Source of the DNA: a virus
DNA length: 34,641 bases
IMG/VR virus record: IMGVR_UViG_3300045988_070268
Strand: one strand, 5' to 3'
In this document: positions 2,693 through 4,609 of the stretch, one piece after another
Layout of the letters: each line of letters opens with the position of its first letter
How positions within the stretch are numbered: position 1 is the stretch's first letter
The notes under the pieces: generated by a model
What the model saw: only the letters and a program-made list of their open reading frames with translations
Database searches by the model: none
Told to the model about the DNA's origin: nothing
Position numbers and translations under genes: made by a program

Positions 2693-3382
2693 CTACGGGC
2701 GCGACACCGGGAAGACGAGCTGCCCGTAATAGTAGCTATCCGCTACCCGATTTACGTACACCGAAATCAGTCCATTTCGGTCAACCATCAGCTGGCCTGA
2801 CATGCTGTCTTCGCCTCTGTAACGGAGCGGCGCGATATAGGCGCCGCTATCATTGTGCGAACTGTTACTCGCGACGCCGAGAGGCTTGAGGCCGTCTGGC
2901 AGCGTCCCTATCTGGGTGAACGTATTCGCCGTCTTCACGTTAAGGTAGTCGGTCGAGACGATGCAGATACCCCCTTCGACGTAGCACGTGAGGCTCTCGC
3001 CGAGCCGGAATTGCTTCCGAGATACGGAATTGGCTAGGCTTCCAAGCTCTCCACCGACTGTTGTAGCGGTCGAATTTGAATTGGAAATGGTGTTTCCTTT
3101 TGCAATCGCGCCAGTCACCCTACGGAGAACACCGGCCACAACGACGTATTGACCAGCGGTGTACGCCTGCGATGCCGTGGTCGAGGATTCGACCGCAGCG
3201 CTCGGAACGATTTGGCGCTGAAGCGAAATGCTGTTTGAGTTGTTGATAGTGAAAGTGCTCGTTGTGTTGTCGGTGTATACGATTGTGTAGGTATCGACGG
3301 ATTCCGTGCTAGCGGTCTTGACAATTTTCGTGATGCCGCGCCCGTCCTTGCCCTTCACGTTTCCGATGATGATTTTCGCCAT
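2693..3382 (-). CDS. Fibre paralogue 3: shared N-terminal module (MAKIIIGNVKGKDGRGITKIVKTAS..VDTYT) plus an S/T/N-rich C-terminal domain
   Basis: RBS AGGAGGG. The N-terminal 40 aa are paralogous to the two upstream collagen-like genes. The C-terminal domain is unrelated and is a putative receptor-binding head. Confidence 0.65.
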   Translation of the reverse strand: MAKIIIGNVKGKDGRGITKIVKTASTESVDTYTIVYTDNTTSTFTINNSNSISLQRQIVPSAAVESSTTASQAYTAGQYVVVAGVLRRVTGAIAKGNTISNSNSTATTVGGELGSLANSVSRKQFRLGESLTCYVEGGICIVSTDYLNVKTANTFTQIGTLPDGLKPLGVASNSSHNDSGAYIAPLRYRGEDSMSGQLMVDRNGLISVYVNRVADSYYYGQLVFPVSRP

Positions 3383-3392
3383 TCTATCCCTC

Positions 3393-4262
3393 CTAAATTA
3401 TATAATAAACGTTTCCAGTGCTTTTATCATACTCGAATTTGGGAGCGGTGCTTGCTGCGTCGCTGTAATATGCGACAAGATTGCCAGCGTCATCTACACC
3501 AAGCGAGAAAAGGCCGGAAATGGGAACGGTTATACCGGCGTCTCCCTTGTCTCCCTTTGCACCTGTGTCTCCCTTTTCTCCCTTTGCGCCAGTGTCTCCC
3601 TTTGCGCCTGTGTCTCCCTTTGCGCCCTTTGCACCGTTGGTGACGGTGTATGTTGATGTTGTGCCATCTGTATACGTGGTTGTATAGGTATCCACAAGCC
3701 CGCTCGTTGAGGTCTTGGCGATTCGCGAAATGCCGCGCCCCGCTGCACCCGTCGCGCCCTTTGCACCTGTGTCTCCCTTTTCTCCCTTTGCGCCAGTGTC
3801 TCCCTTTGCGCCTGTGTCTCCCTTTGCGCCCGTGTCTCCCTTGTCGCCCTTTGCGCCAGTAGCCCCGTTCTGCCCCTGCCTTGCGACGCTGTAGGCTACT
3901 GAGCCGTCAGAATAGGTGAGCTTAGTCCAAAGGTACTGACCCTGTGGTGCTGATACTACGCTGTTGCTCCACGTCCCCGAGGGGGGGGTGGTGTTGCTCG
4001 CCCCCGCTTGGTACTGGATAGACGATGTTTTTAGCGGCGCACCAGTCGCGCCCTTTGGGCCTTGCGGCCCGGTGGCCCCCGTGTCGCCCTTCGCGCCGTT
4101 GGTTACCGTGAAGCTGCCGGCGGCTGTACCGTCCGAAAAAGTTGCGGTGTATGTATCGACAAGCCCGGAACTTGCGGTCTTCTCGATTTTAGAGATTCCG
4201 CGCCCGTCATCGCCCTTGTCGCCCTTTACATTTCCGATTAAGATTCTAGTCAACAATACCAC
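3393..4262 (-). CDS. Collagen-like tail fibre protein (289 aa) with two copies of the N-module and long Gly-X-Y runs
   Basis: [25 protein letters not shown] repeats are present. The module [20 protein letters not shown] occurs at aa about 20 and again at aa about 175. The C-terminal [27 protein letters not shown]...[15 protein letters not shown] is shared with the 4268..4609 protein. The start is probably TTG at 4254..4256 after AGGAGAGG; the track uses GTG at 4262. Confidence 0.7.
3530..3860. repeat. Tandem in-frame 9/27-nt repeats (gtgtctccctttgcgcc units) encoding (GAKGDTG)n collagen triplets
   Basis: Two blocks at about 3530..3640 and 3760..3860 consist of near-identical 27-nt units. They lie inside the CDS with period 3n and no spacers. 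Confidence 0.8.
3981..3988. repeat. G8 homopolymer (C8 on the coding strand) inside the collagen-like CDS, encoding TTPPS
   Basis: gaggggggggtggtg, read directly; it lies between the two modules of the 289-aa protein. Confidence 0.8.
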
Positions 4263-4267
4263 CTCTC

Positions 4268-4609
4268 CTAGATTACGTAGTATATGTTTCCGCTCTCGCG
4301 GTCGTATTCGAATTTGGGCGTTTCGCCCGTGCCTGCATCGTTATAGCTTGCGATTATGTTACCGTCAGCGTCAACGCCCAAGCTGAAAAGGCCAGACATG
4401 GGAACGGTTATACCGGCGTCGCCCTTGTCTCCCTTTTCTCCCTTCGCGCCGTTGGTTACCGTGAAGCTGCCAGCGGCGGCACCGTCCGAAAAAGTTGCGG
4501 TGTATGTATCGACAAGCCCGGAACTTGCGGTCTTCTCGATTTTCTGGATGCCAGCGCCGCGCTCGCCTTTGAGCATCATCACCTTGACGGTCTCGTCTAT
4601 CTTCGCCAT
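4268..4609 (-). CDS. Short collagen-like fibre paralogue (113 aa)
   Basis: [43 protein letters not shown]...[31 protein letters not shown]...KFEYDRESGNIYYVI. The N-module and C-terminal domain are shared with the 3393..4262 protein. Confidence 0.65.
   Translation of the reverse strand: MAKIDETVKVMMLKGERGAGIQKIEKTASSGLVDTYTATFSDGAAAGSFTVTNGAKGEKGDKGDAGITVPMSGLFSLGVDADGNIIASYNDAGTGETPKFEYDRESGNIYYVI

Follow-up and report, generated by a model that had tools for sequence, protein, structure and literature searches.

The 34,641-nucleotide (nt) stretch of viral DNA analysed here (IMG/VR record IMGVR_UViG_3300045988_070268; hereafter the window) carries on its minus strand, at positions 2693-4609, three tandem late genes (genes 1 to 3) that probably form a modular, recombining fibre cassette encoding baseplate appendages. 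The window is a circularly permuted, complete temperate siphophage genome (~34.7 kb) from the human gut, the permutation being evident because the gene for a tail protein with DUF859 and Gp10_C domains is split by the window ends. An earlier note, made from the sequence alone, had described the locus as three paralogous collagen-like fibre genes placed between the genes for the distal tail protein (Dit) and the tail-associated protein (Tal). Open reading frame (ORF) calls of 113, 289 and 229 amino acids (aa) confirmed the three genes. The separation of about 2.9 kb given for Dit and Tal is also right: 2,936 bp lie between the Dit stop and the Tal start, and ORFs of 118 and 106 aa are found there as well.

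Shared modules and traces of recombination

The N-terminal module common to the three proteins appears to be a divergent member of Pfam family PF19079, CFSR ('collagen-flanked surface repeat'), of which we found no mention in the literature. Gene 1 of the window aligned to the 49-position profile with 15.2 bits (E 0.026; gathering score 27 bits), its orthologue P0011 scored 27.7 bits, and 40 of 52 gene 1 orthologues matched at E <= 0.01. A KGxxGxxG motif precedes all four CFSR copies in the window, and in genes 1 and 2 each copy is also followed by Gly-X-Y runs. BLASTP among the three proteins supported their paralogy through this module with matches far beyond chance: gene 1 aligned to gene 2 with E 2e-28 (CFSR2 through the C-domain) and 8e-23 (CFSR1), and gene 3 matched gene 2 with E 1e-12 and gene 1 with E 1e-8. 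The conserved core proposed by the earlier note, GxGI.KI.KT...VDTYT, is present in gene 1, but the 'KIxIGNV' start is not, gene 1 having its own leader, MAKIDETVKVMMLKGERGAG. A search of 1.84 billion representatives with the gene 1 profile retrieved 6,988 clusters at 50% identity, among them giant proteins in which the module is repeated up to 19 times and a recurring group of ~350 aa that has four copies at the N-terminus; in other gut phage contigs, CFSR, collagen and C-domain modules are combined in different orders. Because the module is widespread and recombined in other phage contigs, these parts are a common construction kit.

Gene 1 (4609..4268, minus; 113 aa) consists of the leader (aa 1-17), one CFSR (aa 18-53; nt 4558-4451), 4-5 Gly-X-Y triplets (aa 54-66) and a C-domain (aa 67-113; nt 4411-4271) of 46 aa, with two similar beta-hairpin-like halves and a match to phrog_25888. 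Gene 2 (4262..3393, minus) is listed with 289 aa, and its start is probably the TTG at 4256, giving 287 aa as in the European Nucleotide Archive (ENA) gene calls. After a short leader it comprises CFSR1 (4205-4098), collagen (4097-4035), a middle domain M (4034-3876), collagen (3875-3741), CFSR2 (3740-3636), collagen (3635-3534) and the C-domain that it has in common with gene 1 (3533-3396). The order of modules in the earlier note was correct as far as it went, M having been overlooked; this non-collagen domain of 53 aa (aa 77-129) matches PHROG 'tail fiber; host specificity' families, and gene 2 as a whole matches many PHROG 'tail fiber' families. Plus-strand ORFs over the collagen region lack family support and were dismissed as by-products of GC-rich repeats.

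Gene 3 (3382..2693, minus; 229 aa) carries a short leader and CFSR (3382-3236), a neck (3235-3044) and a beta-sandwich head (3043-2696). Its distal part, previously taken for a single unrelated S/T/N-rich head, is indeed unrelated to the other two genes, but is made up of a conserved neck (aa 50-113) followed by a distinct head (aa 114-229). Two of the three genes had been credited with Gly-X-Y runs and a common C-domain. The C-domain is present in genes 1 and 2 as described; the runs are substantial only in gene 2, with 7, 16 and 12 triplets (35 in total), compared with the 4-5 triplets of gene 1 and 2 triplets in gene 3. Likewise, only gene 2 reached the 27.2-bit threshold of the collagen family PF01391 (61.2 bits), and genes 1 and 3 had no Pfam match. 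Gene 2 is thus the sole real collagen fibre among the three, and gene 3 is non-collagenous. The genes are separated by 5 nt (genes 1 and 2) and 10 nt (genes 2 and 3), and a Shine-Dalgarno sequence precedes each of them.

The cassette was compared with seven related IMG/VR contigs with the same frame (including L001, L002, L029, L030, L031 and L033). Protein identity to the window was 73-91% for the tape measure protein (TMP), 82-95% for Dit, 86-99% for the 118-aa protein, 86-93% for the 106-aa protein and 90-97% for Tal, as against 55-95% for gene 1 and 54-71% for gene 2 where it was not absent; gene 3 could be aligned to its relatives only over an N-terminal stretch of 116-209 of its 229 residues, or between half and nine-tenths of the protein. 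In global nucleotide alignments, identity was 82-99% in the flanks, 50-96% in gene 1, 4-78% in gene 2, 76-83% in the N-terminal part of gene 3 and 25-40%, the random level, in its head. The cassette is therefore an island of divergence, and hypervariability is confined to genes 1-3. Gene 1 was found in every relative, and gene 2 is missing from L031 and L033. Where present, gene 2 takes several forms: CFSR-collagen-M-collagen-C in L002 (275 aa) and L030 (305 aa), a version with an additional 'GDYYLNTSTGAVY' domain in L001 (335 aa) and a short CFSR-collagen-C in L029 (7001-7400), in which a T6 run, as against T5 in the window, causes a +1 frameshift that breaks the gene. The frameshift would reflect a sequencing error, a pseudogene or a slippery switch.

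The diversity of gene 3 is concentrated in its head. In a large protein database, the gene 3 family comprised 803 clusters at 90% identity, compared with 87 for the 118-aa protein. Among the top 118 homologues, the first ~113 residues formed one cluster (median identity 80%), whereas the heads fell into at least 18 clusters with no detectable mutual similarity, and the junction between neck and head is sharp, right after SNSTATTVxGEL. No gene 3 homologue was retrieved from 50,697 deposited phage genomes, in which gene 1 gave one partial C-domain match only, and a genome-collection scan with the gene 3 profile gave no match. Variation driven by a diversity-generating retroelement was ruled out, given that the heads are replaced wholesale and not by point variation and that no reverse-transcriptase family was found among the Pfam-annotated genes of an identical contig or the larger ORFs of the window.

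Gene 1 retains a record of exchange between paralogues. In the window, L001 and L002, its CFSR DNA is 85-89% identical to CFSR1 of gene 2 in the same genome, whereas identity to the gene 1 orthologues of this CFSR in L029, L030, L031 and L033 reaches only 64-67%; for comparison, the two paralogous copies of L030 share 62% of their DNA, and the gene 3 CFSR is 56-62% identical to the other copies. In a sliding window, nt 1-45 of gene 1 were orthologous (93-100% identity to L030 gene 1 vs 33-43% to gene 2), nt ~70-230 came from gene 2 (mostly 90-100%, down to 73-75% in the short collagen run) and nt ~255-345 were orthologous again (87-97%). This delimits a gene-conversion tract of ~160 nt at about 4380-4540 (minus strand), 90-100% identical to the window's own gene 2 and 47-67% identical to gene 1 of L030 and L033.

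Gene 2 itself contains a perfect 75-bp direct repeat in collagen-coding sequence, with copies at 3553-3627 and 3757-3831, 204 bp apart, that bracket CFSR2 and encode the same 25-residue stretch on either side of it. Deletion between the copies would yield a 221-aa CFSR-collagen-M-collagen-C protein, the architecture of L002 and L030. Gene 2 had previously been interpreted as an internal duplication, and it does have two N-terminal modules; a simple tandem duplication does not fit, because the two CFSR copies are only 69% identical in DNA while the flanking collagen carries a perfect repeat. On this sequence evidence, gene 2 is better read as having a module inserted, or retained, between recombining collagen repeats. 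The claim of a modular, recombination-driven locus is thus borne out by module gain and loss, head swaps among relatives, the conversion tract and the 75-bp repeat, and comparison shows recombination at the shared modules as the apparent source of diversity in the cassette.

The suspicion that the shared modules might be an assembly artefact did not survive examination of other samples. Five contigs encode the exact gene 3 protein; four of these were examined, and they derive from different ENA samples and assemblies. Three of them contain the whole 4,014 bp from Dit to Tal at 100%, 99.975% and 99.9% identity to the window, with the same set of 113-, 287-, 229- and 106-aa genes; the fourth covers the downstream 1,588 bp only, at 100% identity.

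Predicted gene 3 fold, proposed appendages and rival explanations

An AlphaFold2 (AF2) monomer model of gene 3, built from a 50-sequence alignment, reached a predicted local distance difference test score (pLDDT) of 79.9. It runs from a three-stranded CFSR sheet (aa 17-47) through a beta-rich neck and a helix (aa 109-120) to an eight-stranded beta-sandwich (aa 123-226). In Foldseek searches against the PDB, the top 17 matches were lactococcal p2/TP901-1 receptor-binding proteins (RBPs), with probability ~1.0, E values from 2e-3 to 4e-2 and target-normalised template modelling (TM) scores of 0.32-0.64; alignments of the head only (~112 columns, root-mean-square deviation 3.2-4.1 A) gave TM 0.44-0.64. 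Against BFVD, two homologues were followed by matches that include RBPs of Lactococcus phages BK5-T, 51701 and AM7 and of Leuconostoc phage phiLN6B, the 'receptor binding protein 2' of 51701 aligning with TM 0.68. At the fold level, gene 3 follows the lactococcal plan of a neck and a C-terminal beta-sandwich head. Gene 3 is therefore a candidate RBP, for which a role in host recognition is plausible because the predicted head fold matches these lactococcal proteins.

We propose that genes 1-3 encode three kinds of probably trimeric baseplate appendages. Each would begin with the same kind of N-terminal unit, made of a hydrophobic strand, a KGxxGxxG mini-collagen and the CFSR beta-module, which would dock onto a ring formed by Dit and the 118-aa protein, predicted to be Ig-like. 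Gene 1 would be a stub ending in the 46-aa double beta-hairpin C-domain, probably a trimerisation or registration knob. Gene 2 would be a flexible fibre with the same end knob and a collagen helix in three segments. The collagen triple helix rises about 0.29 nm per residue, and the 105 residues of gene 2 would span ~30 nm. Gene 3 would be a short RBP, with its neck and p2/TP901-1-like head, probably binding a strain-variable surface saccharide. Comparison shows that homologous recombination takes place at the CFSR and Gly-X-Y sequences, among the paralogues of one genome as well as from phage to phage; it inserts, deletes and swaps modules and heads, and leaves the remainder of the tail unchanged.

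Several observations weigh against this proposal. The window's own proteins score below the Pfam cut-off for CFSR (15 vs 27 bits), and the triplets of gene 1 are too few for a stable collagen helix by themselves. Neither the head nor the whole of gene 3 matched Pfam, PHROG or NCBIfam, and no RBP-head sequence family was recovered; the structure predictions are monomeric, and the Foldseek E value of the head is modest (about 2e-3). We infer the docking of the N-terminal unit from comparative conservation; the presence of the three proteins in the virion and their control of host range are predictions. As to the host, the only matches are to metagenome-assembled genomes (MAGs) of Clostridia/Eubacteriales. 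Finally, gene 3 may be auxiliary rather than the primary receptor binder, because a second conserved adhesin candidate is encoded downstream of Tal, and the Tal of phage Ld25A ('putative antireceptor') has a homologue of its DUF859/Gp10_C domain in the C-terminal region.

Taken further, this last point would make the three proteins virion decorations for non-specific adherence to mucus glycans or the general cell-wall surface, with the DUF859/Gp10_C protein as the true receptor binder. Ig-like capsid decorations have been proposed for such adherence, and an Ig-like protein adjoins the genes; the small C-domain that closes genes 1 and 2 is conserved and is no obvious binding head, the DUF859 protein is 79-90% identical across the relatives, and the Tal region of Cequinquevirus to which its Gp10_C domain is homologous is the one called 'putative antireceptor' in GenBank. 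We nevertheless consider this explanation unlikely, as the hypervariable gene 3 heads with their sharp junction bear the usual signature of selection by variable host receptors, the head fold matches that of dedicated saccharide-binding RBPs, and one relative has an F5/8-type C carbohydrate-binding domain at the same position. A further rival holds that the paralogues co-assemble through the CFSR/mini-collagen unit into mixed trimers or a branched complex instead of three homotrimers. It is difficult to reconcile with L031 and L033, which function with two genes only, and with L041 and L043, which have one fused protein; moreover, the gene 3 CFSR is just 56-62% identical to the others, and chain lengths and distal domains differ greatly. 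The unit is common to all three proteins, the tightly spaced genes look translationally coupled, and the conversion that keeps the gene 1 and gene 2 CFSR copies alike in the window, L001 and L002 might reflect a co-assembly constraint, but simple homology-driven recombination explains it equally well, and we regard co-assembly as quite improbable.

Dit and Tal are adjacent in many model siphophages, and the earlier note accordingly described the cassette as an insertion into this pair. A recent foreign (moron-like) insertion, or a repeat-induced error of the assemblers, would account for such an arrangement. However, the order Dit, Ig-like protein, fibre or enzyme genes and Tal is found in all close relatives, that is, in the seven related contigs, as well as in Eubacteriales MAG prophages and Cequinquevirus isolates, and it extends to distant relatives with Tal only 49-53% identical. 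The premise of an interrupted pair is therefore wrong for this lineage. Together with this synteny, the recovery of the 4,014-bp region in three ENA assemblies from other samples, and of its downstream 1.6 kb in a fourth, refutes insertion and artefact alike; GC content is not anomalous either, and we give this explanation almost no credence.

The content of this slot between the Ig-like protein and Tal varies widely outside the close relatives. In L041 the slot holds a single protein of 500 aa, in which a leader and two CFSR copies are joined to the F5/8-type C domain; in L043 it holds a single protein of 365 aa that combines a leader, four collagen-free CFSR copies and a gene 3-type neck and head; and in L045 there is a 670-aa protein that has the leader but no CFSR. 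In the Lactobacillus phages Ld25A and Ld17, the order is TMP, Dit, a small protein (homologue of the 118-aa protein), an 878-aa glycerophosphodiesterase, a 'collagen repeats protein', an 'adsorption protein' and Tal. In the window, L041, L043, L045 and Ld25A, the gene next to the Ig-like protein on its downstream side opens with a leader of the form [VI]K..[ML][LV]KGxxGxG, independently of what follows this leader, be it a carbohydrate-binding module, four CFSR copies and a head, a large CFSR-free protein or a glycerophosphodiesterase.

A more speculative extension, which we offer tentatively and consider somewhat doubtful, is that leader and CFSR together are a standardised plug and the Ig-like protein on the Dit ring its socket, a general connector shared by an abundant gut lineage and dairy Lactobacillus phages. 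If so, one baseplate could bear three different appendages at equivalent sites, or mixed trimers; distal modules such as RBP heads, carbohydrate-binding domains and enzymes like the Cequinquevirus glycerophosphodiesterase could be exchanged without touching the tail, and gene conversion between paralogues would keep the plugs compatible.

Flanking tail genes and genome context

The cassette belongs to a tail-tip operon with the order TMP, Dit, Ig-like 118-aa protein, genes 1 to 3, 106-aa protein, 40-aa ORF, Tal and DUF859/Gp10_C protein; over the first 30 kb of the window, every gene lies on the minus strand. The TMP gene (8746..6065, minus) matches PF20155. Dit (6053..4977, minus; 358 aa) scored 21.8 bits against PF05709, just short of the 24.2-bit cut-off, and matched phrog_33 with E 6e-24, placing it in the Dit family. 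It is of the 'evolved' form, carrying an insertion of ~125 residues (roughly aa 125-262) that the 234-aa Dit of Ld25A lacks; this form is common to L041, and the short form is found in L042 and L043. The Ig-like protein (the 'p135' ORF; 4980..4624, minus; phrog_1084), whose start overlaps the Dit stop, was modelled by AF2 as a beta-sandwich (pLDDT 87) with Foldseek matches to generic Ig folds only, and by analogy is a candidate collar or socket for the fibres. In L042, a Eubacteriales MAG prophage, its homologue (7493-8263) carries a fused type I dockerin domain (PF00404, E 1.5e-8), which suggests a baseplate protein able to bind cohesins on a cellulosome-type host surface.

Downstream of gene 3 lies the conserved 106-aa protein (2616..2296, minus), which had no match in Pfam, PHROG, NCBIfam or the PDB; the Ig-like protein likewise had no match in PDB sequence searches. 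Directly after it comes a conserved 40-aa ORF (MGYIYARLIYKGLRTFDSVPEKYKDATKAAYKDIYGIELK; 2294..2172, minus), called in the ENA records, matching phrog_1382 (E 7e-7) and kept in six relatives. The pair may be fibre-assembly helpers. An XkdW/XkdX-like identity was unsupported, with no Pfam match and only the phrog_1382 match of the 40-aa ORF. The untranslated gap that follows (2041-2171) contains, just upstream of the Tal ribosome-binding site, a very stable hairpin at 2064-2091 on the minus strand (G8UGCA-GCGA-UGCGC8, with a GNRA-type loop; fold z-score of the region -2.7). It has no Rfam match and is kept in six relatives, in which the lengths of the G-run and C-run co-vary (5 to 8), and it could be a processing, attenuation or translation-control element.

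Tal (2040..400, minus; 546 aa) matches PF06605 with 88.4 bits (cut-off 31.3). The gene beyond it, encoding the DUF859 and Gp10_C protein, has its N-terminal part at 1..384 (minus) and the rest at about 33225-34641 (minus); in the identical contig L036 it is whole (12999-14744; 581 aa), and in the otherwise identical contig L039 it is called as 475 aa. The C-terminal 115 aa of this protein are 46% identical to the C-terminus of the Ld25A Tal, so the Gp10_C-type domain has shifted between Tal and a protein of its own. The DUF859/Gp10_C protein, a further conserved adhesin candidate, may bind a conserved second receptor.

Elsewhere in the window, a serine recombinase is encoded at 31627-33129. 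No deposited phage was close at the nucleotide level. By protein, the nearest isolates are Cequinquevirus phages of Lactobacillus delbrueckii (TerL 72%, Tal 50%, Dit 48% and the 118-aa protein 40%, the last to Ld25A gp16). TerL (14640-16334, minus) has this 72% identity to Cequinquevirus, yet the phage has 56% GC and a genome scan with its Tal gave matches only in uncultured Clostridia/Eubacteriales MAGs. Different bacterial classes seem to have the structural module in common. Next to the terminase genes, 16690-17538 (minus) encodes a 282-aa protein with a match to the TET-associated glycosyltransferase family (PF20691, E 2e-35) and a possible role in DNA modification; a scan of the larger ORFs showed no TET/JBP-type dioxygenase. 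The endolysin (18581-19642, minus), with GH25, two CW_7 repeats and LysM, lies far from the tail genes, past the packaging genes and not after the tail module.

Significance and comparison with known systems

Exchangeable RBP heads and collagen-like repeats between host-specificity domains are already established in dairy phages, and genes in the slot between Dit and Tal, including one with collagen repeats, are present in Cequinquevirus annotation. What is specific to this locus is the co-residence of three CFSR-led paralogues, the mapped conversion between them and the scale of head diversity in an uncultured gut lineage. This lineage is found very commonly in metagenomes of the human gut, and for the Ig-like protein hundreds of member sequences fall into single clusters. 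The analysis confirms known principles, namely modular RBPs and repeats as recombination substrates, and reveals no new one; it provides a well-bounded map of fixed and exchangeable tail-tip parts, in which the junctions are precise: that of gene 3 follows 'TTVxGEL', and those of genes 1 and 2 lie at CFSR and collagen sequence. The map is useful for host prediction, host-range engineering and the annotation of 'hypothetical' CFSR/collagen proteins in metagenomes.

Among isolates, the Cequinquevirus phages (c5, LL-Ku, Ld3, Ld17 and Ld25A) offer the closest parallel, with homologous TerL, Dit, post-Dit small protein and Tal, and several genes between Dit and Tal. The window has their type of tail-tip frame, in the same order: its Dit is 48% identical to Ld25A gp15 in two blocks, its Ig-like protein 40% identical to the small protein, and its Tal 50% identical to the N-terminal 520 aa of the Cequinquevirus 'antireceptor'. 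Their first slot gene has a similar leader (VKLLMLKGDKGDG), and their slot also contains the 'collagen repeats protein'. The cargo, however, differs. Theirs comprises the 878-aa glycerophosphodiesterase, a collagen protein of 331 aa whose N-terminus is different, and an 'adsorption protein' of 184 aa, with no CFSR paralogue set, and homology of the slot genes was not found beyond matches at the Gly-X-Y level (E 0.002-0.003) and the short leader resemblance. The N-terminus of the Ld25A collagen protein was rejected as a relative of the Ig-like protein (hhalign probability 0.8%). Their Tal bears the Gp10_C-type 'antireceptor' domain, which in the window is on a separate protein downstream of Tal, and host class and lifestyle appear different. 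Glycerophosphodiesterase activity has been placed in the Ld17 baseplate, according to a review (PMC7476776), and genome annotation points to the slot gene as its source.

Lactococcal RBPs (p2 ORF18 and TP901-1 ORF49/BppL) are the best structural matches of gene 3 and share with it the N-terminal anchoring part, the neck and the C-terminal beta-sandwich head. An exchangeable head on a conserved N-terminal anchor is the classic RBP pattern, known from dairy phages, and in the lactococcal phages swapping the heads alters host range (PMC3499812). In contrast to these proteins, gene 3 is encoded upstream and not downstream of Tal, has an identity of 11-15%, that is, no sequence similarity, and is anchored by the CFSR module instead of the p2 shoulder or the TP901-1 N-terminal helix. 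In the antireceptors of Streptococcus thermophilus phages, collagen-like repeats separate the domains and the variable region VR2 determines host range (PMC5601072). The separation of domains by such repeats, plausible recombination substrates, recurs in the window, but the antireceptor is one large Tal-type protein, whereas the window spreads the parts over three genes upstream of Tal.

In phage T5, the long tail fibres are held on the Dit ring by the small collar protein p132 (PMC7291167). This protein may be a functional analogue of the Ig-like 118-aa protein; the likeness is one of analogy only, and the gene order differs. With proteins of families PF19079 and PF01391, finally, the window shares a divergent CFSR flanked by Gly-X-Y, and the same CFSR, collagen and C-domain parts recur in many phage fibre proteins. 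The difference lies in deployment, the repeat being used once at the N-terminus of three small proteins in the window and not many times in one giant.

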